Under the pieces are notes generated by a model that did not search any database, had not been told where the DNA came from, and worked only from the letters and a program-made list of their open reading frames with translations. From positions 1-26,748 of the forward strand of contig CAVVEU010000018.1 of NCBI GenBank assembly GCA_963747235.1: a DNA stretch of 26,748 nucleotides, given 5' to 3'. Below, piece after piece: positions 4,153 through 26,748 of this stretch. The DNA is from an uncultured Candidatus Rokubacteria bacterium (lineage in GTDB: Bacteria > Methylomirabilota > Methylomirabilia > Rokubacteriales > CSP1-6). Positions within the stretch are counted from its first letter, which is position 1. Every line of letters begins with the position of its first letter. A program made the translations under genes and the position numbers.

Positions 4153-5226
4153 TTACTGAACGAGGTGGTCGGCCCGCCGCAGCAGGGCGGGCGGAATCGT
4201 GAGGCCGAGCGCCCCGGCGGTCTTCAGGTTGATCGCCAGCTCGAACTTGGTCGGCGGCTCCACGGGAAGGTCTGCGGGGCTCGCCCCGGCGAGGATCCGG
4301 TGGACGTAGGTGGCGGCACGGCGATACAGATCGCGACGGTCGGTGCCGTACGACATGAGCCCTCCGGCGTCCACGAACTCCCGGAGCCCATAGATGGCCG
4401 GCAGCCGGCTCATCGCCGCGAACTCCAAGACCCGAGCCCGGTACGTGAACGTCAGCTGGTCTTCCACCGCGATGAGCGCGTCGATCTGGCCGAGGAGTGC
4501 GGTCTCGAACAGCTGCTCGAACGGCTCAAATCTCTGCCCCTCGAGCCGCTTGAGCTGTACTCCCATGGCCCGGGCCATCACCTCCGTGTCTCTCACGATC
4601 AGCGGAGCGTAGAGGTCACCGGGATTCCAGAGGAGGCCGATCCGCGATGCTCCCGGCACCGCCTCCCGGAGGAGCTGCATCCGCCTGCCCCCCAGCTCGG
4701 GCGGGGCCATGATGTGCAGCCCGGTGACATTCCCTCCCGGTCGGGCCAGGCTGGCCACGATGCCCTCGAGAACGGGGTCGCCACTCGACGCCATCACGAT
4801 CGGAATCGTCCGGGTGATCTGCCTGGCGGTCAGCGTCGCCGGTGTTCCCCTGGTCACGATCACGTCCACCTTGAGGCGGACCAGGTCGTTTGCGAGATCC
4901 GAGAACCGCTCCGGGCGGCCATTCGCCGAGCGGTACTCGATCACCACGTTCTGCCCCTCGACGTATCCGAGCTCGGCCAGACCCCGGCGGAAAGCGCCGA
5001 GGTTCGCGGTGTTCGCCGCCTCATCCGCGATCTCGAGCACACCGATTCGGTACAGCTTCCCCGCCTGCTGCGCTTCGATGGCGAGCGGCGCCGCGAACAT
5101 GAGCATCGCCGCGACACAATGCATCGTGATAAAGGTCGGGCGAACATTCATGATCGCGGCGACGGTACCGCGCCGAGCTGGCGAAGGGCCGACAGATGGG
5201 ACAGCATCCCGCACCATCGTCATCAA
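4153..5226 (-). CDS. ABC transporter substrate-binding protein (ABC_sub_bind-type); true start probably further downstream
   Basis: AQQAGKLYRIGVL, LGYVEGQNVVIEYR, IPIVMA, SLARPGGNVTG, AGGLMSYG, DLPVEPPTKFELAINLKTAGALGLTIP. Confidence 0.9.
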   Translation of the reverse strand: MMTMVRDAVPSVGPSPARRGTVAAIMNVRPTFITMHCVAAMLMFAAPLAIEAQQAGKLYRIGVLEIADEAANTANLGAFRRGLAELGYVEGQNVVIEYRSANGRPERFSDLANDLVRLKVDVIVTRGTPATLTARQITRTIPIVMASSGDPVLEGIVASLARPGGNVTGLHIMAPPELGGRRMQLLREAVPGASRIGLLWNPGDLYAPLIVRDTEVMARAMGVQLKRLEGQRFEPFEQLFETALLGQIDALIAVEDQLTFTYRARVLEFAAMSRLPAIYGLREFVDAGGLMSYGTDRRDLYRRAATYVHRILAGASPADLPVEPPTKFELAINLKTAGALGLTIPPALLRRADHLVQ

Positions 5227-5720
5227 CCCCGCTCATGACGAATGACGTTGAACCTCTCGTCCGCCGCGGGCGCTTGGAAGTACGCGGTGACGGCGTCGAA
5301 CTCGGCCTCCGTGGTCCAGGCGGAGCCGGCGGGCACCCCTTGGCTTCTCTGCCTCAGCTGGCGCTTGCAGAGACCATCGGGCACGTCGATGAAATGCAGC
5401 TCGTGCTCGACGCTCGCGCCTTCGAAGAGCTCTCGAAACCACTGACGCTGCGCTCGGGTGTTGCCGGGAAAGTCCAGGACGACCGACACTCCGCTCGCCA
5501 GAAGATCCCGGATATGAAGCGACACGGCCGCTCTGAGTCGAGCAGAGCACTTGACGAAGTCTTGAATGGTTGAAATCTCCCCGGGATACAATGCATCGAG
5601 CAACTCGTCCTGCACGAGGAGGACGGCGTTCCTCGTCCGAGCCAACTCCCTCGCGTGCGTCGACTTCCCGGCGGCCATTTTCCCGCACATGAAGTATAGC
5701 CTAGCCCGATCCTCTCTCAT
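5223..5720 (-). CDS. P-loop NTPase / predicted kinase (AAA_33-like)
   Basis: Walker A CGKMAAGKST, then VSVVLDFPGNTRAQRQWFR. Confidence 0.85.
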   Translation of the reverse strand: MREDRARLYFMCGKMAAGKSTHARELARTRNAVLLVQDELLDALYPGEISTIQDFVKCSARLRAAVSLHIRDLLASGVSVVLDFPGNTRAQRQWFRELFEGASVEHELHFIDVPDGLCKRQLRQRSQGVPAGSAWTTEAEFDAVTAYFQAPAADERFNVIRHERG

Positions 5721-5760
5721 CTTGCCCCATCGCTCGCCACCCGAGCCCTCGATGAACCGA

Positions 5761-6174
5761 TCAGTGATGTGCCAGATCCAGGAACGGCGTGTCCGGATCA
5801 CTGACGTAGAAGATCATGACTCGCATGAGCTCGGTGCCGCGATTGTAGCCCGTCATCTTCACTTGCGGCGGCTCCACTATCGCTTGCCCTGCCTTGGCCG
5901 TGACCGGAGCGCGGCCCTCCATTTCCAACGTGAACGTCCCTTTCAGGACGTAGACGGTCACCGGGAATCGGTGGGTATGGAACGGCGTGGCCTCGCCAGG
6001 CTTGACGGCCGCCACGAGGACCCGCACCTCTTGCTTCTCTCCCCTGGGCATGCCCTGCACGATCTCGCGAAGGACCGGCGGCGGCGGACTTGCTGGACTC
6101 CGCTCTTGCGCCATCGAACCCGACGGAACGGCCGCAATCATCAGGGCAAGACCGATACCGATCCCACTACGCAT
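5761..6174 (-). CDS. Secreted cupin domain protein
   Basis: N-terminal signal-like segment, then TPFHTHRFPVTVYVLKGTFTLE cupin motif. Confidence 0.85.
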   Translation of the reverse strand: MRSGIGIGLALMIAAVPSGSMAQERSPASPPPPVLREIVQGMPRGEKQEVRVLVAAVKPGEATPFHTHRFPVTVYVLKGTFTLEMEGRAPVTAKAGQAIVEPPQVKMTGYNRGTELMRVMIFYVSDPDTPFLDLAHH

Positions 6175-8581: not shown

Positions 8582-9694
8582 TCAACGCGATCGACATGAC
8601 CGCGGCTCAGCGCCCCTGGTGAGCGGGGCAACGCTCGGCCGTAACGTGCGGTTGAAGAATCCGACGATCTCACGATTCATCACCTCATGGAACGCGTCGC
8701 GATCGAAGCCGGCCGGGTCTCGCCCGCCTTCACCGACTACGATCTTCAGCGCCGTGGGAAAGCTCGTGACGAACGAGAAGTGCCCGGCACCCTTGACCAG
8801 AACGCATTCCGCCCGAGGCAGCGTCTTCGCCAGGCGCTCGCCATGATACGGCAGGCGCGTCAGGTCGTCCTTCTCCGCGGCGTAGACAAGCGCGGGAACC
8901 GTGACCCTTGCCAGCGCATCGTCCGTGAACCGCACCACGTTCGGCGCCAATAGGACAATGGACCGAACCCTCGGATCGCGGAGCTCCGGGAGGTGGCCGA
9001 CCTCGCGAGCGGCTTCCCGAGTGGCAGCACCCCCGTAGCCGCAGAACCTGGCGTCGTCGGGATGCTCGCGGCAATGCGCGGCCTCTGAGCCAGGACTGGG
9101 TCGGGCACCGGCGACTGCCAGCGCGGTGTAGCCACCATTCGAATGCCCCACTATCCCGATGCGCTCGCGCTCGATGTGCGGCCCGAGCTCTCCGTCGTCC
9201 AGCACCGCATCAACAACGCGGGACACTTGCTTCGGGCGGCCGACCCACACGCTGGCGCCGGATATGTCGTCGCCCTTCCCTCGCGGGTGGGTGGGCGCCG
9301 CGACGACGTAGCCTTGCAAGGCGAGCGCCATCGCCAGATCCCGGTGGAGCAAGGCCATGCCGCCGGCCCCATGCGAGACGACGATCACCCCGAAGGCCCC
9401 TGCCGCGACCGGCGCATCCTGGGCCACCGGCATCTCGAACGCTATACGCCGACAGACGATCGCCGGCAAGCGACACCGCGAGAGCGAGCCGGTCAAAAAG
9501 AGAGGAGCGGGCGCGGCGGGGGTGGGATACCAGAGAGCGACAGGGAATGACTCGCCAGTCACCGCGTCTTGCAGAGCGATCGTGCGGTAGCCGACGTTCC
9601 AAGACGGCGCGGCCGCCGCCGTCGGAGCGAAGCAGAAAAGCAGGACTGCCGACAGGAGGCACACGCGACACTTGAAGACTGCGGGCGACCTCAT
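8582..9694 (-). CDS. Secreted alpha/beta hydrolase (predicted dienelactone hydrolase family)
   Basis: Signal-like N-terminus, VALWYP, VVSHGAGG, nucleophile elbow GHSNGG, GAGHFSF. Confidence 0.88.
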   Translation of the reverse strand: MRSPAVFKCRVCLLSAVLLFCFAPTAAAAPSWNVGYRTIALQDAVTGESFPVALWYPTPAAPAPLFLTGSLSRCRLPAIVCRRIAFEMPVAQDAPVAAGAFGVIVVSHGAGGMALLHRDLAMALALQGYVVAAPTHPRGKGDDISGASVWVGRPKQVSRVVDAVLDDGELGPHIERERIGIVGHSNGGYTALAVAGARPSPGSEAAHCREHPDDARFCGYGGAATREAAREVGHLPELRDPRVRSIVLLAPNVVRFTDDALARVTVPALVYAAEKDDLTRLPYHGERLAKTLPRAECVLVKGAGHFSFVTSFPTALKIVVGEGGRDPAGFDRDAFHEVMNREIVGFFNRTLRPSVAPLTRGAEPRSCRSR

Positions 9695-9733: not shown

Positions 9734-9777
9734 CGGCACGCCGCTTGCGGCGCGTCCGCTGCAACGCGGTGCTAGGC
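9734..9777 (-). other. Degenerate half attC relic
   Basis: Minus strand GCCTAGC-accgcgttgcagcggac-gcgccgcaagcggcgtgc: mutated R'' (AAC to AGC), L'' and central hairpin. L'/R' are missing. Lies 18 nt after a stop codon. Confidence 0.6.
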
Positions 9778-10345: not shown

Positions 10346-10424
10346 GTCTGACCGCCGTTCACCTGCGGCGGACCAAGCGACCGCAAGGAGCGAGGCCGGC
10401 CTCAGGTCGAACGGCATGTTAGGC
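10346..10424 (-). other. attC site (79 bp; R' is GTCAGAC, non-canonical)
   Basis: R'' GCCTAAC overlaps the TAA of the upstream gene. Imperfect palindrome with arms gccgttc-acctg / caggt-c-gaacggc. Confidence 0.85.
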
Positions 10425-10898
10425 GCCACGTCTTGCGTCGGCCTGCTCATGGCGGCTCTCCACGAAGCGCCTCAGGTTGATGCCTTCGATGCGCATGTGC
10501 TCGCGCACAGCGTCAACCTCTCGCTTGTTCAGGCGGGCGGCGAGGGGACCAACTCGAAGGAAGATCTCGGCTATGAAGCGGTAGTGCCGGTCCGCTATCC
10601 TCTCAAGGCGAAAGACGAGACGAGGAAGGAAAAGCCGCATCAGCCAAGACGTCGGGGCAAACTCGATGCGCCCTCCGTCTTCGATGCGTGTGAACGCGAC
10701 GTTCTTCTTCAAGAGCTTCCCCGCGATCACTTCCTCGAAGTAGAACTCGTTTCCGACCACCAATCCCTTGCCGCGAGTCCAGCGGAAGACCTTGTGGTCT
10801 AGATGCCACCCGAGGTAGCGCGCATTGTCCATGCCTTCGAAAAAGTCGAAAACATCGGAAGGGGAGGCGTGCACCTCAATCACGTCTTGAAGGACCAT
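10419..10898 (-). CDS. SRPBCC/polyketide cyclase-like protein (cassette gene)
   Basis: VIEVHASPSDVFDFF...YLGWHLDH...VREHMRIEGINLRRFVE. The stop lies in an attC R''. Confidence 0.75.
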   Translation of the reverse strand: MVLQDVIEVHASPSDVFDFFEGMDNARYLGWHLDHKVFRWTRGKGLVVGNEFYFEEVIAGKLLKKNVAFTRIEDGGRIEFAPTSWLMRLFLPRLVFRLERIADRHYRFIAEIFLRVGPLAARLNKREVDAVREHMRIEGINLRRFVESRHEQADARRGA

Positions 10899-10920
10899 CG
10901 TCCGCTTCCCTGCGTTCTGG

Positions 10921-11358
10921 CTACCCGAGCTCTTGGGCGAGCCCGATGAGGATTCCTTCGGGCCCCCGGATGTAGCAGAGCCGGTACGTGTCTTCATACT
11001 GGACCACTTTGCCGACGAGCTCCGCGCCGCGTTTGCCGAGCCGGGCGAGCGTATCGTCGATGTCCTCCACGGTGAACATGACGCGTAGGTAACCGAGAGC
11101 GTTCACCGGGGCGCTGCGGTGATCGGCGACCACAGGCGGCGCGAGGAATCGGGACATCTCGAGCCGGCTGTGACCGTCCGGCGTACGCATCATGGCAATC
11201 TCGACGCGCATATCGCGCAATCCAGTGACGCCATCTGCCCAGTCTCCTTCGATTGGGGCACGCCCCTCAAGCTCAAGGCCAAGTTCGGCAAAGAACTCAA
11301 TGGCGGCATCGATGTCTTCTACCACGATGCCGACGTTGTCCATACGCTTGACCGTCAT
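10921..11358 (-). CDS. VOC/glyoxalase family protein (cassette gene)
   Basis: MDNVGIVVEDIDAAIEFFAELGL...YRLCYIRGPEGILIGLAQEL. Preceded by GTTAGAC and a GGGAG SD. Confidence 0.92.
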   Translation of the reverse strand: MTVKRMDNVGIVVEDIDAAIEFFAELGLELEGRAPIEGDWADGVTGLRDMRVEIAMMRTPDGHSRLEMSRFLAPPVVADHRSAPVNALGYLRVMFTVEDIDDTLARLGKRGAELVGKVVQYEDTYRLCYIRGPEGILIGLAQELG

Positions 11359-11372
11359 GATGTCTCCCTGGC

Positions 11373-11409
11373 GTCTAACGTGCCGCGTCAGCCGCGCCCG
11401 TCCGCGGGC
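11373..11409 (-). other. 3' half (hairpin, L', R' GTTAGAC) of an attC interrupted by the IS
   Basis: Plus strand gtctaac-gtgccgcgtcagccg-cgcccgtccgcgggc directly abuts the IS end. Confidence 0.75.
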
Positions 11410-11453
11410 GGATCTTCCCTCGGTTTTGTAGACACGGGTTCACGACCGAAGTT

Positions 11454-12336
11454 CTAGACGTGCTGCGCTTCATAGTCAACCGGGGAGCGGTAGCCGAGCG
11501 CCGAGTGCAACCGGACGCGGTTGTAGTACGGGATGTAGCGCCGGAGCAGCGGCGCGAGTTCGTGGCTCGCCAAGCTGACGCCGTGGACAACGTCCGTCTT
11601 CATCGAGTGGAAGAAGGACTCCATGTGCGCGTTGTCCGTGACCTCCCGGGGTCGGTTCATACTCTGGACGAATCCGAGGGTGGCCAAGCGGGCGCGGAAG
11701 GCGTACGCCGCGTACTCGCTGCCCCGGTCGGAGTGGAAGAGGAGCCCGGGCGGGGGACGCCGATTGACCACCGCGTGGTTGAGCGCGGCCAAGGTCAGCC
11801 CCGCCTCCTTATGGCGGCCCAGGCTCCACCCGACGACCCGCCGCGAGTAGCGATCCAGGACCACCGCGAGATAGCGCCACGCCGGCCCGACCTTCAGATA
11901 GGTAATCCCCCACCCAGACTTGAGCCGGCCCCGTGGCCAAGCGAGCGAGCTGGCGGTTGGGGATGCTGGTGAAGAAGGCGTGCAACCCCGGGATGGCTCG
12001 GTACAGCGTCACCGCGCGGGCGCGCAGCCCCGCCGCACGCATGAGCCGCGCGACCCGGCGCCGGCTGACCCGGGTGCCCGCCGCCCGGAGCGCCTGATGG
12101 ATCCGCGGGCTGCCATACGTCCCTCGACTGCCGTCGAAGATGGTGCCAATCGCGCGCAAGAGGTCCCGGTCCTGTCCCCGACGGGGGCTCTCGCCCCGGC
12201 CTCGCCACGCGTAGTAGCCCGCCCGCGTGACGCCGTAGAGCGCACAGAGCCGCTTCACCGTGAACCCCCCGCGCTGGCTCGCGATGAACGCGAAGATCTC
12301 GCGCTTCGTGCGGAACAGAACCGGATGGCTTTTTTT
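11454..12336 (-). pseudogene. IS3 OrfB DDE transposase with an extra frameshift near 11904
   Basis: TYGSPRI, QVWVGD/(I)TYLKV..WRYLAVVLDRYSRRVVGW, HSDRGSEY, DNAHMESFF, RLHSALGYRSP. The frame breaks at GGGGAT-TACC, consistent with a 2-nt loss. Confidence 0.85.
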
Positions 12337-12626
12337 AGGAGCGCATGCTCCTCCTGCAGTATCGCGTGCTCGCGCTCGAGGTCCTGCAGCCGCTTGATCT
12401 CGCGCACCCGCTGCCCCTCGCCGGCCCTTCGCCGGACCCGGCCTTTCAGTGTCCCGTCCCGGGCTTCCTTGCGCCAGCGCGACAGCATGAACGGATGGAG
12501 GTCCAGGGCGTCGGCCACCGTCTGCACCTGCACCCCCGGCATGCCGCTCAACTTCACCGCCGTCAACTTGAACTCCACACTGTAGTGGTGCACCTTCCGC
12601 GGCCCAATCGGTCTGCCCACCGACAC
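12255..12626 (-). CDS. IS3 OrfA (HTH) with programmed -1 frameshift motif AAAAAAAG at 12336-12329
   Basis: YSVEFKLTAVKL...VADALDLHPFMLSRWRK...ILQEEHALLKKA. Confidence 0.9.
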   Translation of the reverse strand: MSVGRPIGPRKVHHYSVEFKLTAVKLSGMPGVQVQTVADALDLHPFMLSRWRKEARDGTLKGRVRRRAGEGQRVREIKRLQDLEREHAILQEEHALLKKAIRFCSARSARSSRSSRASAGGSR

Positions 12627-12671
12627 CTCCCTGTGTTAGCCAGAAGTGTCTACTTTATCGAGGGAGGTCCA

Positions 12672-12697
12672 CGGTCCGTTGGAGCGGGATGTTGGGC
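12672..12697 (-). other. 5' half (R'' GCCCAAC, L'') of an attC interrupted by the IS
   Basis: Lies 9 nt after the SBP stop. R'' is complementary to the GTTGGGC that starts this cassette. Confidence 0.8.
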
Positions 12698-12706
12698 AGC
12701 GCGTAA

Positions 12707-13726
12707 TCACTCGATGACCCGGTCTACTCGGAGTAGGAGCGAGGGCGGGATCGTCTGGCCGAGCGCCTTCGCAGCCCGGAGGTTGATCGCCAACTCGAAC
12801 GTGGTCGGCTGCTGAATGGGGAGATCGGCGGGCCTCGCGCCTTTGAGGATCTTGTCGACGAAGGTTGCCGCCCGCCGGTGCTGATCGGAGTAGTTCGGGG
12901 CGTACGACATCAACCCTCCGGCCTCCACATACTCGCTATCGGGATACATCCCCGGCAGCCGGTGTCCTGCTGCGAGGCCGACGATCCGGGCTCGATGAGC
13001 ATTGGTAACAGCGTGCGGCAGCACGATGAGTCCTTGGGCGCGGCCCTTGATGAGGTTGGCGAAAGCCTGCTCGATCTCGTCGGGCCCGGCTATCGCGTGA
13101 AGCTGGGGCATTGCCTTCACCGCCTTGGCAGCGCCTTCGATCACTTGCCATAGCCTGCAGTTTTGATCGCTGCACGGATCAGAACTGAGGGGGTTGGCAG
13201 CTAGAGTTCGTGAGACGGTGAGAACGGCAACCCGATAGACCGTGGGCACCGCCTCCCTCAACAGCTCTACCCATTTCCGACTCACTTCGTCCGCGAGGCC
13301 GGTTATCCCAGTGATGTTTCCACCCGGCCGTGCGAGGCTGGCGGCGTAACCGTTCGCGACGGGATCCGCCACGGTGGCAAAGACGATCGGTATCGTTCGC
13401 GTCGCTCTCTGGAGAGCGGCGACGCCGGCGTTGTTATACGTGACAAGTACGTCAACCTTGAGCTGAGTGAGTTCCGCGGCGAGCGCTGGGAACCGGTCGG
13501 GCCTGCCTTCCGCCCAGCGGTAATCAATCGAAATGTTCTGGCCCTCCACGTAGCCGAGCTCCCGCAGGCCTTGCCGGAAGGATTCGAGCAGGCGTGCGCC
13601 CGCGGAAGCGGAAACAGGTCCCAGGTAACCAATCCGCCAGGTCTTCGTCGGCGGCTGCGCGGCGGCAACGAACGGCGCGGCCGTGACCGCGATGCTTGCG
13701 GCGAGAAATGCGCGACGGCTCGTCAC
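12707..13726 (-). CDS. ABC transporter substrate-binding protein (ABC_sub_bind-type) carried as an integron cassette
   Basis: Twin-Arg-like SRRAFL signal, LGYVEGQNISIDYR, SLARPGGNITG, AGGLMSY, DLPIQQPTTFELAINL. Confidence 0.92.
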   Translation of the reverse strand: MTSRRAFLAASIAVTAAPFVAAAQPPTKTWRIGYLGPVSASAGARLLESFRQGLRELGYVEGQNISIDYRWAEGRPDRFPALAAELTQLKVDVLVTYNNAGVAALQRATRTIPIVFATVADPVANGYAASLARPGGNITGITGLADEVSRKWVELLREAVPTVYRVAVLTVSRTLAANPLSSDPCSDQNCRLWQVIEGAAKAVKAMPQLHAIAGPDEIEQAFANLIKGRAQGLIVLPHAVTNAHRARIVGLAAGHRLPGMYPDSEYVEAGGLMSYAPNYSDQHRRAATFVDKILKGARPADLPIQQPTTFELAINLRAAKALGQTIPPSLLLRVDRVIE

Positions 13727-13764
13727 TCGATGACCCAGGCGCTCGTCAGTACCAGCACTTGTCT

Positions 13765-13834
13765 GCCCAACGTGTACGCTCAGCGGCCGGGGCGAGCACC
13801 GCGAGCCTCGGACCGCTGCAGCGGGATGTTGGGC
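13765..13834 (-). other. attC site (70 bp)
   Basis: R'' GCCCAAC ... R' GTTGGGC, arms cgct-cagcgg / ccgctg-c-agcg. Shares its core with the attC at 17480. Confidence 0.92.
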
Positions 13835-13838
13835 AGCA

Positions 13839-14140
13839 TCACTCGATCACGTGGTCCGCCTGCACTCGCAGCGACTGCGGGATCGTCAGTCCGAGGACCT
13901 TGGCGCTCTTGAGGTTGATCGTCAGTTCGAACTTCGTGGGTTGCTCGACCGGAAGATCGCCCGGTTTCGCGCCTTTCAAAATCCGATCCACGACCGCCGC
14001 CGTCCGCCTATTTAGCTCGACCGGATCAAACGTGTACGAGATCAAGCCACCAGCTATGACGTTCCGGGAGTTGCCCACCATGAGCGGGAGCCGGTGGTTA
14101 GCGGCGAGCTCACTGCTTCGCGTCTGAAAAGCCTGCTGCT
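13839..14140 (-). pseudogene. 3' fragment of an ABC substrate-binding protein gene
   Basis: ELAANHRLPLM...AGGLISY...DRILKGAKPGDLPVEQPTKFELTINLK...ADHVIE*. The 5' two-thirds is missing. Confidence 0.88.
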
Positions 14141-14167
14141 GCGGTCCGCTCCAGCGTGAAGTTAGGC
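14141..14167 (-). other. Truncated attC (R'' GCCTAAC and L'' only)
   Basis: Minus strand GCCTAAC-ttcacgctggagcggaccgc runs directly into the SBP fragment. Confidence 0.75.
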
Positions 14168-14176
14168 GCGGCGCTC

Positions 14177-14500
14177 CTATCCACCGGACGCCAGGAGCTC
14201 CTCTCGGGACGCGTCCCTAACCGATCCGGTGCGCCTGAATACAAGACCTTCCTCCTTATGGACGCTGCCTAGCCCAAGCAAGGTAGGCCTGGCGAGCTGG
14301 ACCGTGACCAAGATCTCATCCGACCGCAAGCCCTGTCTGAACGTCGTGAGCACGCACTTGCGGCCTCCAACCAGCGTCTCTTCCCCTTGTGTCTCAGGAA
14401 GCTCACTAGCCTGATCGAACGTCAGACTGCGCAGGGCTGCTATCCGTTCGCCGATCAGCGTCGCGACCTCCACGTCGTATCGCTCGCGATCCATGGCCAC
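14177..14500 (-). CDS. Hypothetical protein (cassette gene)
   Basis: 107-aa ORF that fills the space between GTTAGGC and the complementary R''. Confidence 0.8.
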   Translation of the reverse strand: MAMDRERYDVEVATLIGERIAALRSLTFDQASELPETQGEETLVGGRKCVLTTFRQGLRSDEILVTVQLARPTLLGLGSVHKEEGLVFRRTGSVRDASREELLASGG

Positions 14501-14506
14501 CTTGCT

Positions 14507-14563
14507 GCCTAACGCCGCGGTGAGCGGCGCGCGAAACGCGTCCGCTCTACTGCAAAGTTATCC
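14507..14563 (-). other. attC site (57 bp)
   Basis: R'' GGATAAC (contains the toxin TAA) ... R' GTTAGGC, with hairpin gagcgg-cgcgcgaaacgcg-tccgctc. Confidence 0.9.
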
Positions 14564-14855
14564 GTCCTTTCGCCGCCTCCACACACGAGGATCTCTGGCA
14601 CCGTGGAAGACGGCGTACACCACGATCTCGCCGGGCTCGATTTCGTAGAAGACCGCGTACGGAAATCGCCGCAGGAGCGCTCTGCGCATCGTCGGATCGA
14701 CCAGGGCGTAGGCTCCGGGATGGCGCCGGATCGACGCGAGGCAGGTGTCGACGGCCGCAAGGAAGTCCGAGGCGAGGCCGGGCGCCTGTCTGGTACCAGA
14801 GGTGGGCCTCGTCCAGATCAAGCTCAGCCTCCGGGGTGAGGCGCAGCCGCTTCAC
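14558..14855 (-). pseudogene. RelE/ParE-family toxin, frameshifted near 14790
   Basis: MKRLRLTPEAELDLDEAHLWY in one frame continues as RQAPGLASDFL...RRALLRRFPYAVFY...VYAVFHGARDP in another. Confidence 0.88.
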
Positions 14856-15070
14856 TTGCGACGTCGGAGCCTAGCACGTACCTGCGCCCAAGATCGCGCG
14901 GCAGAAGGATTACGCGCGTGCGCACGCCGCCGCCGCTCGAGTTCCTTACGTTGGGCGTCCGTGACCGGAACCGCCTCGGGTGTTTCAACGAGGCTGTCCC
15001 AGATTTCTTCGAGCAGCTGCAGCCGATCGGGAACACTGAGCCCTCGGATCTACTTGCGAACGGTGCTCAT
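14852..15070 (-). pseudogene. Addiction-module antitoxin (TIGR02574-like) with in-frame TAG at codon 7
   Basis: Manual translation MSTVRK*IRGLSVPDRLQLLEEIWDSLVETPEAVPVTDAQRKELERRRRAHARNPSAARSWAQVRARL. GTGA overlap with the toxin gene. Confidence 0.88.
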
Positions 15071-15076
15071 GACTGG

Positions 15077-15105
15077 ATTCTCTGCTTCTCGTTCTCTGGC
15101 CGCAA
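15077..15105 (-). promoter_or_regulatory. Putative cassette-internal promoter of the TA operon
   Basis: TTGCGG-17nt-GAGAAT-6nt-ATG. Confidence 0.4.
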
Positions 15106-15120
15106 GTCTTACGTCAGTAC

Positions 15121-15245
15121 GGATAACGTTTGAGCTGAGGGGCTCGCGCCGGTGTGGCGCTTGGCCCGCGAGGCGCTCGCTGTCATCATCGTTTCGCGGG
15201 CCAAGCGCCACACCGGCGCGAGTCCCCGCGAGCGAAGGGTTAGGC
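15121..15245 (-). other. attC site (125 bp)
   Basis: R'' GCCTAAC ... R' GTTATCC, with a long perfect stem ctcgcgccggtgtggcgcttggcccgcga / tcgcgggccaagcgccacaccggcgcgag. Confidence 0.95.
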
Positions 15246-15781: not shown

Positions 15782-15841
15782 GCCTAACGCTCAGTATCAG
15801 CCGCGGCGCGGAGCGCCGGCAACTGCATGCTGAAGTTAGAC
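15782..15841 (-). other. attC site (60 bp)
   Basis: R'' GTCTAAC (contains TAA) ... R' GTTAGGC, central cggcgc-gga-gcgccg hairpin. Confidence 0.85.
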
Positions 15842-16339
15842 ATGCTCGCCACCACGACGCGATCCACAAAGCGACAAGAACTCGTCTCCTGTCATGATTC
15901 TTGTGGCGAACTCCGTCTCGAGCCGTTCACGCCGCCCACCTTCGATAAATCCCTTCCTGTCATTCGTCACAAAGATGTCGCGACCGTCACGGATGTGGGC
16001 GGACAGTATCATCGCGTCGCGAAGCTGCCGCCGCTCCCCGGCTGACAGCTTCGAACGCCGCTCTCGCGCCGGGAACGACCCGTTCGAAATGACCTGCAGG
16101 AGTCGCTCGAATGCGTCCGCCACAGGCCGCGCTCCGAGGGCGGCAACGCCAATCGCGCTCTCTCCCATCACAAATGGTTCTACGACGGCCCGATTGTTCT
16201 CGAACGCCGTTTGTACCCCTGACGACTCCAACTCCCGATCGGTGACCGTCGTATGAGCGAGCTCGAAGCCGGCCAGCCGTGCCGCATCGGCAACCCGCCC
16301 ATCGTCCACTGTGTTTGTGTCCAAAGTGACCGACACCAT
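15836..16339 (-). CDS. PIN-domain-like protein (cassette gene)
   Basis: N-terminal VTLDTN, VTDRE and C-terminal DAMIL...IFVTNDRKGF give the acidic pattern typical of PIN nucleases. Confidence 0.65.
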   Translation of the reverse strand: MVSVTLDTNTVDDGRVADAARLAGFELAHTTVTDRELESSGVQTAFENNRAVVEPFVMGESAIGVAALGARPVADAFERLLQVISNGSFPARERRSKLSAGERRQLRDAMILSAHIRDGRDIFVTNDRKGFIEGGRRERLETEFATRIMTGDEFLSLCGSRRGGEHV

Positions 16340-16340
16340 A

Positions 16341-16403
16341 GGATCACGTGGGCTTCAGCCGCCACGAGCGAAGCGAGTGGTCGGCTGCAAGCCCGAGTTA
16401 TCC
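16341..16403 (-). other. attC site (63 bp; R' is GTGATCC, non-canonical)
   Basis: R'' GGATAAC (contains TAA), arms gggctt-cagccg-ccac / gtgg-t-cggctg-c-aagccc with two extrahelical bases. Confidence 0.88.
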
Positions 16404-17393
16404 AGCGACGCAACCCGCGCCCGCAGCAAACGTCACCCTCGCGAAACGGTCCGTAGCCCGAATCAACTCCTCCGTGATGCCAGGATTGCTGGCCGCGTGC
16501 CCAGCATCGTTCACAACCACCAACTCCGAGCGAGGCCATAGGCGGTGCAGTTTCCACGCCGTAGCGAGCGGCGCCTGAAAATCGAAACGCCCGTTCACGA
16601 GCACCCCAGGAATGCCCGCAAGCCTATCCGCGTCACGCAAGACACTTCCATCGCCAAGCCACGCATTGTGACGAACGTAATGCGTGACCAGCCGCGCATA
16701 GGCCATGGCGAACGACGGATCACGGAACCGCGCTGCCAATCCAGACACAGGAGGCCAATCCGGTGTCGCGGACTCCCACAAGCACCAGGCAAGAGCAGCC
16801 CGCTCACGAATCACGGCATCCGAATCCTGCAACAAGCGGCAGTATGCCTCGACGATATCGCCGTCGCGATCGGCGACCGGCAAGGCGCTGCGGCGACACC
16901 CCCACTCTTCGGGGAAGAACGCGCCAAGACCGTCACGAAACAACCAGTCAAACTCCTCGCGCTGACCCGTCGTAACGCCAAACAGGATCAATTCCGTCAC
17001 ACGAGTCGGAAACCGCTCGGCATAGGCAAGCGCCAACGCGCTGCCCCATGACCCACCCAACACCAACCACCGCTCGACATTGAGGTGCACCCGCAGCCGC
17101 TCAATGTCGACGATCAGATTTTCAGTGGTGTTTCCCGACAACTCTGTCTCAGGGGAGCTCGCATGAGGCCGGCTCCGCCCACAACCACGTTGATCAAACA
17201 GCACAACGCGGTACGCAGCAGGATCGAACAACCTCCGATGCCACGGCGTGCACCCCGAACCGGGACCACCGTGTAGGACGACAGCAGGCTTGCCCCTGGG
17301 ATTGCCGCACACCTCCCAGTACACGAGATCACCGCCAGTGACCTCCAGCATGCCCTGCGCATACGGCTCGATCTCGGGATACAGGTCTGGCAT
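16398..17393 (-). CDS. pip: Proline iminopeptidase (cassette gene)
   Basis: LYPEIEPY, HGGPGSG, FDQRGCGRSRPHA, GGSWGS, GRFD, AGH. Confidence 0.93.
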   Translation of the reverse strand: MPDLYPEIEPYAQGMLEVTGGDLVYWEVCGNPRGKPAVVLHGGPGSGCTPWHRRLFDPAAYRVVLFDQRGCGRSRPHASSPETELSGNTTENLIVDIERLRVHLNVERWLVLGGSWGSALALAYAERFPTRVTELILFGVTTGQREEFDWLFRDGLGAFFPEEWGCRRSALPVADRDGDIVEAYCRLLQDSDAVIRERAALAWCLWESATPDWPPVSGLAARFRDPSFAMAYARLVTHYVRHNAWLGDGSVLRDADRLAGIPGVLVNGRFDFQAPLATAWKLHRLWPRSELVVVNDAGHAASNPGITEELIRATDRFARVTFAAGAGCVAG

Positions 17394-17479: not shown

Positions 17480-17552
17480 GGATAACGGTCCCGCTCAGCA
17501 GCCGGAGGGCGAGCACCGCGAGCCCCCGGTCTGCTGCAGCGTTCAGTTCGAC
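17480..17552 (-). other. attC site of the first cassette (73 bp)
   Basis: R'' GTCGAAC ... R' GTTATCC, arms cgct-cagcag-ccgg / ccgg-t-ctgctg-c-agcg. Confidence 0.93.
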
Positions 17553-17570: not shown

Positions 17571-17963
17571 TCATGCTCGCGGGAATACCTCCTCGAAGAA
17601 GTGCCGATCACCGGGGAAGGTCGGATCCAGCGTCGCGATCTCTTGGACGGTCACCCAGCGGGCATCACTGACCTCCCGCCGGTCAGGCCTGAGATCGTGG
17701 TTCTCCGCCTCCGCCAACCACCAATGCAGCGTGTGGGTCCCTCCTGCCGAGACGCTCTCCCAGACCTTCCGCACCGGTCGGATCGTTACGCCAACCTCTT
17801 CCTTCACCTCGCGAATGACAGCGGCCTCCTGTGTCTCATCGGGCTCCACCTTCCCGCTGGGCGGTGCCCACTTTCCGGGATCGGGTCCACTTGGTCCTCG
17901 CCGAATCATCAACACTAAGGGCCCACTCCGCACTACAGCAACGATGGCGTCAGGCAACACCAT
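17571..17963 (-). CDS. NUDIX hydrolase (first cassette)
   Basis: Nudix box GKVEPDETQEAAVIREVKEEVG. Confidence 0.92.
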   Translation of the reverse strand: MVLPDAIVAVVRSGPLVLMIRRGPSGPDPGKWAPPSGKVEPDETQEAAVIREVKEEVGVTIRPVRKVWESVSAGGTHTLHWWLAEAENHDLRPDRREVSDARWVTVQEIATLDPTFPGDRHFFEEVFPRA

Positions 17964-17978
17964 TCGTGCTACTCATCC

Positions 17979-18050
17979 GTCGAACTAGAAATATCCCGGT
18001 CTGCATATTTCGCCCTCGCGCGGGCTTGGTGCGGATAATCCGGCCGGGAT
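17979..18050 (-). other. Putative attI site (crossover G/TT at 17985/17984)
   Basis: Minus strand ...aaatatgcagaccgggatatttctaG/TTCGAC. GTTCGAC is the exact complement of the first cassette's R'' GTCGAAC. No attC hairpin precedes it. The upstream boundary is approximate. Confidence 0.75.
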
Positions 18051-18124
18051 GGCCGGGGCGATGTGGCGGGAGCGGCCTTGGGGGGACGCGTGGTTGGGCA
18101 TGGTCCCGGGGTGCGAGTTCAGTT

Positions 18125-19165
18125 TTACACAGACCTGGATACTTCTGGATGGGGGATTGTGAGGGCCCGGCCACTCATGGGGAGGGGGAGGCGGTCGGCG
18201 GGGCTGAGGACGCCGGCGGGGCCTCGGTTGAGGACGTGGGTGTAGATCATGGTGGTGGAGACGTCGCGGTGGCCGAGGAGCTGCTGGACGGTGCGGATGT
18301 CGGCGCCGTCTTCCAGCAGGTGGGTGGCGAAGGCGTGGCGGAAGGTGTGGCAGGTGGCGCGCTTGGGGATGTCCTTACTGCGCACGGCTTCCTTCACCGC
18401 GCGCTGCAGGACGGATTCGTGCAGGTGGTGGCGGCGGCGCTGGTTGGTCTCGCGGTGGAGGTAGGTGCGGGTGGCGGGGAAGATCCATTGCCAGACCCAC
18501 TCGCGGCCGGCGCGGGGATACTTGCGGGCCAGGGCCCAGGGCAGCTCCACCCAGCCCGCGCCGGCGCGGAGGTCGGCGGCGTGCTGGTCGCGCATGGTCT
18601 CGAGGTGCTTGGCGAGGTCGCGGCTGGCGGCGGCGGGCAGCATCGTCACGCGGTCCTTGTCGCCCTTGCCGGAGCGCACCGTGATCTGGTTGCGCGCGAA
18701 GTCCACGTCCTTCACGCGCAGGCGCAGGGCTTCGAGCAGCCGAAGGCCCGCGCCGTAGAGGAGCAGGGCCGCCAGGCGGGTCGGCCCGTCGAGCGCGTCG
18801 AGGACGGCCTGCACCTCCTCGCGGGTGAGCACGACCGGGATCCGTTCGCGGCTCTTGGCCCGCACGATCTCGTCGAGCCAGGGCAGCGCCTGCTCGAGGA
18901 CCTCGCGATAGAGAAAGAGCAGCGCGCTCAGGGCCTGGTTCTGGGTGGAGGCGGCCACGTTGCGCTGAATGGCCAGGTCGCTCAGGAAGCGCGTGACCTC
19001 GGCGGCGCCCATCTCGGCCGGATGGCGCTTGCCGTGGAACACGATGTAGCGCCGGATCCAGCCGACGTAGGCCTTCTCCGTGCGGAGGCTGCAGTGGCGG
19101 GTGCGCAGCGCGGCCCGCACGCGATCCAGCAGCCGCGGCGGGGGCGGAGCCTCGAGATGCGTCAT
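18125..19165 (-). CDS. intI: Integron integrase (tyrosine recombinase)
   Basis: [35 protein letters not shown], integron-specific insert [47 protein letters not shown]. Confidence 0.97.
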
Positions 19166-24792: not shown

Positions 24793-25088
24793 TGCCGCGG
24801 CTCTTTGCCATCACGCGAACGCGAGGCCCGGCCTGGAAGGCCGAGCGCCCGATGGAAGAGCAGGCCGAATGGCGCGAGCACGCGGTCTTCATGAACGCGC
24901 TGCACCGTGACGGGTTCATCGTGCTCGGCGGGCCGCTCGACGGCACGCCCGACGTGCTCCTGATCGCGCGCGCGACCGACGAGGACGAGATCAGGGCGCG
25001 GCTTGCCGAGGATTGCTGGACCCGCAACGGCCTGCTGGCGATCAAGCAGATCGTTCCGTGGGCGGTACGCCTGGGCAACCTCGACTAG
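24792..25088 (+). CDS. YCII-related protein
   Basis: WREHAVFMNALHRDGFIVLGGPL...LAEDCW. TGATG coupling to the upstream gene. Confidence 0.75.
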   Translation: MPRLFAITRTRGPAWKAERPMEEQAEWREHAVFMNALHRDGFIVLGGPLDGTPDVLLIARATDEDEIRARLAEDCWTRNGLLAIKQIVPWAVRLGNLD

Positions 25089-26668
25089 GCGCGGCCCTTC
25101 GTCGTGAACTGGCGCTCGTAGAGGGCGCGCAGCTCCTCGAGCGTGGCGGCCTGGCCGGGGGCCTTGTCCTCCCGGAGGCGCGCGATGCGGGCGAAGCGCA
25201 GCGCGAGGCCGGAGGGGTAGGTCGGGCTCTTCTGGATCTCGTTGTACTCCACCTCGACGACCACCTCCGGACGCACCCGCACCGTGTAGCCGTCGTCCCC
25301 GATGCTCAGCGCCTGCAGCCGCTCGGTCATCAGGGTGAACTCGCGGTCGGTCAGCCCCTTGAAGGTCTTGCCCACCTCCGCCCAGTCCTCCCCGTCGCGC
25401 ACCGCCAGGTGGTAGTTCGAGAGCCAGCCCACGCGGCGGCCGGAGCCGCGATCCGCCGCGACGATCACGCAGTCCACGCTCTGCGCGGCCTTCAGCTTGA
25501 ACCAGCGCTTGCCGCGGCCGCCCGGCTCGTAGGCGCTGCGCGGGTCCTTGGCCATGACGCCCTCGTGGCCGGCGGCGAGGGCGCGGGCCATCAGCGCCTC
25601 GCCCTCCGCCGCGCTCGCGATCATCGCGCGCGCGGCGAGCCAGCGGCCGCCGGTCAGGCGCTCGAGCGCCTCCCGGCGCGCCGCATAGGGCTCGTCCAGC
25701 AGCGAGCGGCCGTCGGCCATCAGGCAGTCGAAGAGATGCAGCGTGAGCGGCAGCTCCGCGGCCGCCGCCTCCACACCGCGCACGCGGCGGAAGCGGCGCA
25801 TCAGCTCCTGGAAGGGCAGCGGGCGCCCGGCCGCGTCGAGGGCCACCACCTCGCCGTCCAGGATGAACGGGTCGCTTCCGAGATCGCGCCGCGCGATGGC
25901 CACGATGTCGGGCAGGCTCCGGGTGACGTCGGACATGCGGCGGCTCCAGATCGCCACGCGGTCGCCGTCGCGGTGGAGCTGGATGCGCGCGCCGTCGTAC
26001 TTGTACTCGATCGCGGAGGCGCCGCCATGGGCGGCCAGCGCCTCGCCCACGTCGCCCGCGATCTCGGCCAGCATCGGCAGCAGCGGCACGAACACGCGCG
26101 GCGCCGCGGCGGCCAGCGCCGCCGGCCCCTGCCCCAGCGCCAGCGCGGCCACCGTGGTGAGGTCGCCGGTCACCAGGGCCGCGCGGCGCACCGCCGCCGG
26201 CGCCACGCCGGCCGCCTCCGCGATGGCCTCCAGCACGAGCCCCTCGGAGAGGCCCATGCGCATCTCGCCGTAGATCACGCGCTGGAGGAGGTCGAGCTCC
26301 TCCGCCGACGCGCGCGCGGCCAGCTCGCCGAGCCGCGCATCCCGCACCTTCCGCGCCCCCGGCCCCGCCGCCGCAGCGACCGCGCCAAACGCCTCCGCCA
26401 CATCAGCCAGCGTCAGCTCCCCCCTCTCCCCTGTGGGGAGAGGGTAGGGTGAGGGGGTCGTCGCCCCCGGCGCGGGCAAGCCACGGACATTCAGCACGCG
26501 CGGATCCGAGGGCTGGAACGCGCGCCCGCTCAGATACGTGACGGCCAGGCGCAAGTCCTCAGGCGAGAGGCCGCGGAGGTACTCGGCAACCAGGCGTCGC
26601 TTCTCGAGCCGGCCCGGACTCGCGGCCACACGCGTGCGGAGAGCTGTGAGCTCGGCGAGCAATGCCAT
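25085..26668 (-). CDS. ATP-dependent DNA ligase (LigB/archaeal-like)
   Basis: EYKYDGARIQLH, ILDGEVV, FD, EGVMAK, WFKLK, ALRFAR..RLREDK. Start set at ATG 26668. Confidence 0.93.
   Translation of the reverse strand: MALLAELTALRTRVAASPGRLEKRRLVAEYLRGLSPEDLRLAVTYLSGRAFQPSDPRVLNVRGLPAPGATTPSPYPLPTGERGELTLADVAEAFGAVAAAAGPGARKVRDARLGELAARASAEELDLLQRVIYGEMRMGLSEGLVLEAIAEAAGVAPAAVRRAALVTGDLTTVAALALGQGPAALAAAAPRVFVPLLPMLAEIAGDVGEALAAHGGASAIEYKYDGARIQLHRDGDRVAIWSRRMSDVTRSLPDIVAIARRDLGSDPFILDGEVVALDAAGRPLPFQELMRRFRRVRGVEAAAAELPLTLHLFDCLMADGRSLLDEPYAARREALERLTGGRWLAARAMIASAAEGEALMARALAAGHEGVMAKDPRSAYEPGGRGKRWFKLKAAQSVDCVIVAADRGSGRRVGWLSNYHLAVRDGEDWAEVGKTFKGLTDREFTLMTERLQALSIGDDGYTVRVRPEVVVEVEYNEIQKSPTYPSGLALRFARIARLREDKAPGQAATLEELRALYERQFTTKGRA
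26422..26456 (-). repeat. REP-like palindromic repeat copy 2, inside the ligase CDS
   Basis: Minus strand CCCCTCACCCtaCCCTCTCCCC-aca-GGGGAGAGGG. Confidence 0.85.
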
Positions 26669-26702
26669 GCGCGCATTATCCCCCACGCCCCTCACCACCA
26701 CG

Positions 26703-26737
26703 CCCCTCACCCTGCCCTCTCCCCAGAGGGGAGAGGG
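26703..26737 (+). repeat. REP-like palindromic repeat copy 3
   Basis: CCCCTCACCCtgCCCTCTCCCC-aga-GGGGAGAGGG. Confidence 0.85.
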
Positions 26738-26748
26738 TTAGACCGGCA

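Follow-up and report, generated by a model that had tools for sequence, protein, structure and literature searches.

Can a chromosomal integron carry the substrate-binding protein (SBP) gene of an ATP-binding cassette (ABC) transporter as a gene cassette, and does it thereby enlarge the SBP repertoire of its host? The question is raised by a stretch of 26,748 nucleotides (nt) from an uncultured Candidatus Rokubacteria bacterium (contig CAVVEU010000018.1 of assembly GCA_963747235.1), the whole of which is hereafter called the window. A sequence-only reading of this DNA had noticed a full SBP gene between GTTGGGC and a complementary GCCCAAC, a truncated second SBP gene with its own attC site, and a third copy further along, and had proposed that integron shuffling may help to expand and diversify a repertoire of orphan SBPs. 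The window holds a genuine chromosomal integron with genuine cassettes, in a Methylomirabilota/Rokubacteria-like soil bacterium. As the best explanation of the results as a whole, we consider it likely that this integron carries the full gene, SBP1, as a constrained, exported-type binding-protein cassette whose transporter core is encoded elsewhere.

SBP1 encodes an intact PF04392 protein, which starts VTSRRAFLAASIAVTAAPFVAAAQ and has a twin-arginine-type N-terminus (TSRRAFL), an export signal recognised by eye. The gene lies between GCCCAAC at 13765–13771 and GTTGGGC at 12691–12697 (plus-strand letters). When the coding strand is read, GTTGGGC at the upper site belongs to the preceding attC as its R', and SBP1's own R'', GCCCAAC, forms the lower site. 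The cassette begins G|TTGGGC, and its first bases, TTGGGC, are complementary to its own R''. Recombination at G|TT predicts such pairs, and for several cassettes of this array the R'' indeed complements the opening hexamer of its own cassette (TTATCC/GGATAAC, TTAGGC/GCCTAAC, TTGGGC/GCCCAAC). The full SBP gene and the two complementary boundaries of the sequence-only reading were thus right, but the attC that should close the cassette is reduced to 26 nt, split by a probable insertion sequence (IS) of the IS3 family. The arm that remains is nearly identical to that of the intact attCs behind SBP genes in three loci from other assemblies (L114, L047 and L177). From the G|TT crossover of the preceding attC to its own attC, SBP1 is a predicted single-gene integron cassette. 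The ratio of nonsynonymous to synonymous substitution rates (dN/dS) between SBP1 and its relatives ranged from 0.21 to 0.35 in 10 pairs, and SBP1 is therefore under purifying selection.

Further evidence comes from SBP genes outside this genome. At least 120 relatives of SBP1 were found, 62–97% identical among the matches listed, and 160 loci were fetched, 80 from species-representative genomes and 80 from metagenomes. They were scanned with a local attC covariance model, R1 (see below), which was run without filters on 34 metagenome and 12 of the 80 genome loci and with default filters on the others. An attC was detected directly beside the SBP gene in seven of the 160 loci (Table 1), which is a lower bound in view of the partial unfiltered scanning and of the sites that R1 misses. 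The sequence-only reading had named beforehand, as the outcome that would speak against it, an attC association limited to a single locus; the association extends beyond it. The attC-adjacent SBPs belong to at least three lineages, 45–67% identical to each other, that share the same attC type. In L114, an integron integrase (IntI) gene at 32–997, whose product is 73% identical to the window IntI over 324 amino acids (aa), is codirectional with the cassette, and the SBP is the first cassette after an attI-like stretch.

The 5' end of SBP1 is also marked by comparison. A base-by-base inspection covered 29 relatives. In 16 of them, the homology to the window begins at GTTGGGCAGACAAGTG or at variants of its first bases, and upstream of this boundary the sequences differ between groups of relatives. 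Eleven of the remaining relatives lacked the boundary (all but one of them at most 67% identical), one is partial and one could not be judged. A leader shared by the cassettes, CAGACAAGTG, was also considered as proof of the common descent of SBP cassettes; this argument was dropped, for leaders like it also stand behind attCs of window cassettes that carry no SBP.

In the integron itself, the intI gene is codirectional with the downstream cassettes, as it is in L114. The candidate attI region resembles the stretch that precedes the SBP cassette in L114, and 174 nt (17980–18153) are 84% identical to an attI without intI on another contig of the assembly, C33, the identity extending into the last intI codons. 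The GTTCGAC at its end and the closing R'' of the first cassette, GTCGAAC, complement each other. The array comprises nine cassettes on the minus strand, down to position 10346. From attI onwards they carry a NUDIX gene, an alpha/beta hydrolase gene, an open reading frame (ORF) of 167 aa, a GNAT acetyltransferase gene, a decayed ParE-type pair, a 107-aa ORF, the SBP fragment, SBP1, and finally two genes in one cassette, a glyoxalase (10921–11358) and an ORF (10422–10898). The coordinates are collected in Table 1.

Table 1. Features of the window, and attC sites found beside related SBP genes (loci designated L). Bit scores without other mention are those of the model named in the same cell or, for the related loci, of R1.
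Feature	Position	Strand	Evidence and remarks
Third PF04392 gene, SBP3	4153..5226	minus	PF04392 152.3 bits; 4-nt overlap with upstream kinase-like AAA_33 gene (5223–5801)
Last recognisable attC, R' GTCAGAC	10346..10424	minus	Read from sequence; R1 13 bits
L'-R' attC side, R' GTTAGAC, preceding the glyoxalase cassette	11373..11408	minus	Homologous to L'-R' before the C33 glyoxalase cassette
Probable IS3-family insertion sequence inside SBP1 attC	11409..12671	minus	HTH_Tnp_1, HTH_21 and rve matches
R''-L'' arm of SBP1 attC, 26 nt	12672..12697	minus	GCCCAAC..., cut by IS
SBP1, intact PF04392 substrate-binding protein, 339 aa	12707..13726	minus	PF04392 128.1 bits (cut-off 25.9)
Intact attC of SBP fragment, 70 nt	13765..13834	minus	R' GTTGGGC opens SBP1 cassette; R1 94.3 bits, training sequence
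SBPtr, 3' fragment of second PF04392 SBP gene, without start codon	13839..14111	minus	PF04392 56.5 bits, profile positions 205–292 of 293
Partial attC of cassette 6 (ORF 14177–14500)	14129..14165	minus	R'' GCCTAAC and L'' arm only; read from sequence
attC of cassette 5 (decayed ParE-type toxin pair, 14561–15070)	14507..14563	minus	R1 22.5 bits, E 9e-4
attC of cassette 4 (GNAT acetyltransferase), 125 nt	15121..15245	minus	33-nt inverted repeat, 97% complementarity
attC of cassette 3 (ORF 15836–16339, no family)	15782..15841	minus	R1 35.5 bits, non-training; also found by hairpin scans
attC of cassette 2 (alpha/beta hydrolase 16398–17393), R' GTGATCC	16341..16403	minus	R1 33.9 bits, E 5.5e-7, non-training
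attC of cassette 1 (NUDIX 17571–17963, Pfam match)	17480..17552	minus	R1 80.8 bits, training sequence
Candidate attI region (164-nt spacer)	17964..18127	minus	Read from sequence; first junction GTTCGAC near 17985
Integron integrase gene intI	18128..19165	minus	TIGR02249 457.8 bits (cut-off 265), model positions 1–315; Pfam Phage_integrase and Phage_int_SAM_4
L047, SBP 45% identical			attC 61.7 bits just after stop
L114, SBP 79% identical			attC 74 bits after stop
L118, SBP 71% identical			attC 26.2 bits after stop
L120, SBP 70% identical			attC 80.9 bits just before start
L116, SBP 74% identical			attC 40.3 bits before start
L142			attC 40.3 bits before start
L177, SBP 46% identical			attCs 52.5 bits before gene, 56.8 bits after

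Seven complete and two partial attCs were identified by reading the window sequence. A scan with Rfam gave no match to them at gathering thresholds. Since a MAFFT alignment of six attCs yielded no usable consensus structure, three sites that closely resemble one another were used to build R1, their structure being set by hand. With filters off, it recovered five of the seven complete attCs at E < 0.001, three of these five lying outside its training set (35.5, 33.9 and 22.5 bits), and it strongly favoured the coding-strand orientation (for example, 94 versus 35 bits). It missed the 125-nt site and the site with R' GTCAGAC, so that its negatives are soft. A strict search of both strands of the window for RYYYAAC...GTTRRRY with a hairpin returned the site at 13765–13834 as its sole hit; strict scans of this kind overlook attCs whose R' begins with GTG or GTC.

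Compared with shuffled sequences, the attC folds had z scores of −3.9 to −2.9, with one at −1.4; the site at 13765–13834 reached −3.88, and none of 200 shuffles was equally stable. The 125-nt attC folds at −57.5 kcal/mol with AAC paired to GTT, and R1 matches it partially (15 bits). According to passages of a published account, an attC site's bottom strand typically leaves a G and a T unpaired (PMC5027507). In the SBP-type sites of intact relatives, two bottom-strand bases of the R''-L'' arm, a G and a T with a spacing of 6 nt, remain unpaired. In the window attCs at 13765–13834 and 17480–17552, the unpaired bases are C and A or C and T, with the same 6-nt spacing.

One alternative is that the SBPs are ordinary chromosomal genes standing beside hairpins, the integron reading being mistaken or the contig misplaced. 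The low-GC segment from 4.1 to 10.3 kb, where no attC is recognisable, would fit the first half of this proposal, and the contig being only 26.7 kb long and assigned by binning would fit the second. The results already contradict it, however. IntI scores above its curated cut-off, its candidate attI is homologous to that of a second platform in the same assembly, 16 other contigs whose upstream DNA differs have the boundary precisely at G|TT, and L114 holds an IntI together with an SBP cassette. The flanking ATP-dependent DNA ligase gene (25085–26710) is 80–90% identical to genes from assemblies mostly labelled Methylomirabilota, Rokubacteria or Rokuibacteriota, labels from which we take the host to be a soil bacterium of that group, and 61 of the 151 genomes searched in the order contain IntI homologues (58 of 148 when the three unpublished genomes, G084, G056 and G032, are left aside). 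This alternative is therefore extremely improbable. The IntI homologues of the order often number several per genome, and many stand at contig ends or have an internal stop.

The truncated second SBP described by the sequence-only reading was found as announced, with a closely related attC of its own that has 22 of 26 bases in common with the SBP1 remnant. Over 89 aa, the fragment and SBP1 are 58% identical, which argues for two different SBPs with similar attCs rather than for a recent duplication; the fragment is what is left of a second SBP cassette. On its 5' side, the sequence joins without a break the initial ~37 nt of the cassette 6 attC, and no GTT-side arm could be read before the SBP homology at this stump. 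A single deletion would have removed about 70% of the second SBP gene, from its 5' part, together with the 3' half of the cassette 6 attC.

The IS within the SBP1 attC was assigned to the IS3 family on the basis of its domains, seven consecutive A that separate frames one and two (coding strand, near 12330) and imperfect terminal inverted repeats of ~26 bp. Near 11860, orfB breaks into two reading frames (ORFs 11809–12258 and 11454–11864), and no further copy was found across the assembly at E 1e-10. The attC side beyond it, at 11373–11408, is presumed to be the other half of the SBP1 attC. The IS would have split the site after the cassette was formed; it should block excision through that site and so lock the cassette in place.

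Does the integron, then, expand the SBP family? A genome-wide count had been proposed as a check. The binned genome, which amounts to 5.57 Mb in 42 contigs with 88% completeness and 4.9% contamination, indeed contains a large family, with 39 PF04392 matches in six frames, of which 24 were counted as full length, but attCs were detected at the integron copies only. The scan covered 24 regions (53,086 bases) comprising all matches outside the window except one, which lies in locus L001; with R1 and filters off, no attC was found in the 24 regions, the best match (16.7 bits, E 0.047) falling inside a coding region, and R1 had no match beside the SBP in L001. Within this genome, attCs thus accompany SBP genes in the integron alone. 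Several copies stand in tandem clusters: three at C29:44956–47749, four at C5:7065–10397 and two at C15:86501–88833. With 24 other SBP regions in which R1 found no attC, and with these clusters, the proposal that integron shuffling expands the family receives no support in this genome.

The third copy, SBP3, is a PF04392 gene, as had been noticed, but no attC accompanies it: its 85-nt downstream spacer holds no AAC...GTT attC-like hairpin, and the best R1 match reaches 9.2 bits (E 5.6). It also falls outside the SBP1 group in the tree described below. By the tests made, SBP3 is probably no cassette.

The orphan state of these SBPs was likewise correct but is not special to cassettes. As had been stated, no permease or ABC ATPase was found in the window: none of the 75 ORFs scanned (chosen from 171 of at least 60 aa) matched such a family. 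Across the genome, none of the 24 full-length PF04392 genes lies within 5 kb of any of 103 PF02653 permease matches, so that being unlinked to a transporter is the normal state of PF04392 here; among PF04392 fragments, three of 10 lie within that distance. One LivHMGF-like operon at C5:59150–62450, with two permease and two ATPase genes, comes directly after a PF04392 gene.

The origin of SBP1 was examined with a quick maximum-likelihood tree of 39 full-length proteins, with support from the Shimodaira–Hasegawa-like approximate likelihood-ratio test (SH-aLRT) only. SBP1 falls in a clade of 15 rows (SH-aLRT 100), the other 14 of which are without exception from other assemblies; the 23 further full-length copies of the SBP1 genome all fall outside it. 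The comparison of cassette and non-cassette copies that had been suggested therefore sets SBP1 apart from its resident paralogues, but it does not separate cassette genes as a group, since attC-adjacent genes in the clade are interleaved with non-cassette genes of Methylomirabilota-labelled assemblies (L027 and L124, for example). When the 14 best candidates per genome were scored, matches at the SBP1 level (E ≤ 1e-110) were found in two of 151 genomes of the order, this one included; the 13 further genomes of the genus had none. SBP1 is thus predicted to have arrived as a cassette and not as a recent copy of a resident paralogue.

These data also bear on the main rival explanation, namely that SBP cassettes are incidental cargo sampled from an abundant host family, silent deep in the array and decaying, with no role of the integron in uptake adaptation. 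A genome with 39 PF04392 matches would readily supply such cargo. The interleaving of cassette and non-cassette genes in the SBP1 clade agrees with it, as does the cassette SBP of L177, which is 67% identical to a non-cassette gene of the window's genome (C13:185896). So does the condition of the cassettes: one of the two in the window is a fragment, the other has a broken attC, and L047 contains an internally deleted SBP. Moreover, no PF04392 gene (E 1e-6) was present in 80 neighbourhoods of related IntI genes (626,279 bases), and SBP cargo is therefore rare among integrons generally. On the other hand, the dN/dS values of 0.21–0.35 among cassette-borne orthologues indicate selection on the protein, two of the nine cassettes of the window array are SBPs, and the SBP cassette of L114 comes first behind attI, the position that is usually best expressed. 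We regard incidental carriage as a real possibility, although the balance tilts away from it. The internally deleted copy of L047 deserves a description: a mini-ORF (961–1071) joins an SBP-like signal peptide to the C-terminal tail of an SBP (…PPSLLLQADQVIQ) and precedes the full SBP gene in the same cassette, so that it looks like an internally deleted tandem copy.

As to function, the sequence relatives of SBP1 with solved structures are 3lkv, 3lft and 6hni. Three PF04392 structures bind an aromatic amino acid, L-Trp, L-Tyr or L-Phe (PMC10443332). By analogy, the exported SBP1 protein would bind a small solute and pass it to a transporter core encoded elsewhere, and a one-gene cassette could in this way provide a further uptake specificity with no transporter of its own. 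The fact that the whole PF04392 family is unlinked to permeases in this genome makes a one-gene cassette a plausible way to add specificity. A stronger proposal would be that Methylomirabilota/Rokubacteria-like integrons maintain diversified binding-protein cassettes as plug-in specificity modules for resident ABC cores; this we consider doubtful.

The protein could also act alone or with a sensor instead of an ABC transporter, holding a compound in the periplasm or presenting it to a chemoreceptor or kinase. Such a role would suit a one-gene cassette and the distance of all 24 full-length family members from permease genes, and solute-binding proteins are reported to stimulate signal-transduction receptors besides transporters (PMC10443332, PMC9602780). 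But the solved or named PF04392 members belong to ABC uptake systems, and no fusion to a signalling domain was found in the two long open frames checked, which makes a sensory or stand-alone role quite unlikely. An 864-aa frame on C33 was rejected as a PF04392 fusion, for in it the frame runs on from one gene, HpaB, into its neighbour, an SBP.

Several observations weigh against SBP1 being a constrained binding-protein cassette of this host. The window is an entire contig, C18, that is tied to the rest of the genome by binning. R1 rests on three local attCs, and its score for the site at 13765–13834 is circular. SBP1 lacks a complete attC able to recombine. The two attC halves around the IS pair poorly to moderately and no clean target duplication flanks the element, so that a deletion or rearrangement beside the IS is possible. 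SBP1 is the eighth cassette from attI. The sole PF04392 gene adjacent to a permease matches in two frames and looks broken. The dead SBP fragment of the window and the deleted SBP of L047 show that decay of SBP cassettes is common. Finally, the closest relatives (82–89% identical; L026, L106–L112, L115 and L123) keep the GTTGGGCAGACAAGTG boundary and have no R1 attC, and no IntI within 2.5 kb upstream; most copies of the SBP1-type gene may not be mobile now.

In this last group of loci, a conserved element of ~150 nt with repeated GTCAAC/GTCAGC words lies upstream and ends at the boundary GTTGGGC; downstream, the sequences are alike for ~55 nt and diverge after GGGGTC. The upstream element looked like an attI but was rejected as such, given the absence of IntI in the 2.5 kb upstream and of any match in the genome or in the 80 IntI loci. 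The SBP genes of this group may be decayed cassettes, or cassettes that entered at a different type of site.

Other features of the window and genome complete the description. The G+C content is ~0.71 across the contigs of the genome versus 0.61–0.68 at ~5–18 kb of the window. Distal to the last attC, the segment 4100–10345 is low in GC and rich in small accessory-type genes. No attC was recognised below 10346, whether by reading or by the R1 scan. A lone GTTGGGC stands near 9775, directly after a SnoaL gene, and in L116 the gene immediately after an SBP1-like gene is homologous to the window hydrolase at 8582–9693. This segment may be a decayed portion of the array. In cassette 5, the ParE_toxin match (30.9 bits) covers profile positions 22–89 only; the toxin-antitoxin cassette (14507–15125) appears decayed, with the ParE start in another frame and, by eye, an in-frame TAG at the seventh codon of the small upstream ORF.

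The second platform, which lacks intI, occupies L001 8222–11090 (G000 contig C33, ~234.2–237.1 kb) and has at least two attCs. Its glyoxalase cassette is 94% identical to window positions 10920–11395, and a PF04392 gene lies on the opposite strand 2 kb past its last attC. A solitary R1 match (L001 2356–2422; 24.9 bits, E 2e-4) lies between pseudouridine synthase and short-chain dehydrogenase genes, 6 kb from the nearest array. Near the end of the window, at 26687–26745, is a palindromic repeat (CCCTCTCCCC, four bases, GGGGAGAGGG), which was rejected as a tRNA and recurs, with ~50 nt of context, at no fewer than 14 further sites of the genome with 88–98% identity.

Most genes found in integron cassettes are short, and their function is either unknown or a stand-alone one. 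A 1-kb gene for an exported-type SBP that recurs as a cassette under purifying selection would be a concrete example in which an integron contributes a single component to a multi-part system, the rest of which is resident. Should SBP1 bind a solute and serve its uptake, cassette shuffling would be tied to nutrient range in an abundant uncultured soil phylum; should the plug-in proposal hold, the integron would shuffle what the cell takes up, beyond stress and resistance functions. The interest of the locus is moderate, as the integron works in a standard way and has contributed little to the expansion of the family. A literature search, made on titles, abstracts and passages, returned no report of binding-protein cassettes or of Methylomirabilota/Rokubacteria integrons.

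How does this locus compare with known systems? Like TrpX (NF041285) and the proteins of structures 3lkv, 3lft and 6hni, SBP1 has a full-length PF04392 domain and an export-type N-terminus. Unlike TrpX, it remains below the equivalog cut-off (112.1 bits, and 138 bits for SBP3, versus 390), has no adjoining permease or ATPase and is carried in an integron cassette. HisJ and ArgT share the HisQMP2 translocator, and orphan 'Bug' binding proteins serve tripartite tricarboxylate transporters. There, as here, many binding-protein genes are unlinked to transporter genes, and a binding protein alone adds specificity, or would do so here; for the PF04392 proteins of this genome, sharing of a transporter is putative. 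SBP1 differs in belonging to another protein family, and no integron is known to be involved in the HisJ/ArgT or Bug cases.

The closest parallel is with the sedentary chromosomal integrons known from Vibrio and Xanthomonas. The window shares with them a TIGR02249 IntI, a putative attI and an array of mostly single-gene cassettes, attCs that resemble each other as imperfect hairpins with RYYYAAC/GTTRRRY ends, and a cargo that includes an acetyltransferase, a glyoxalase, a NUDIX protein, a toxin pair and unknown ORFs. It differs from those of Vibrio and Xanthomonas in the phylum of its host, in its codirectional intI (an arrangement known as the Treponema type) and in its 1-kb exported SBP cargo, and, unlike known sedentary integrons, it shares its assembly with a second platform without intI. 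The mechanism is thus that of a standard integron, and the uncommon part is the cargo.

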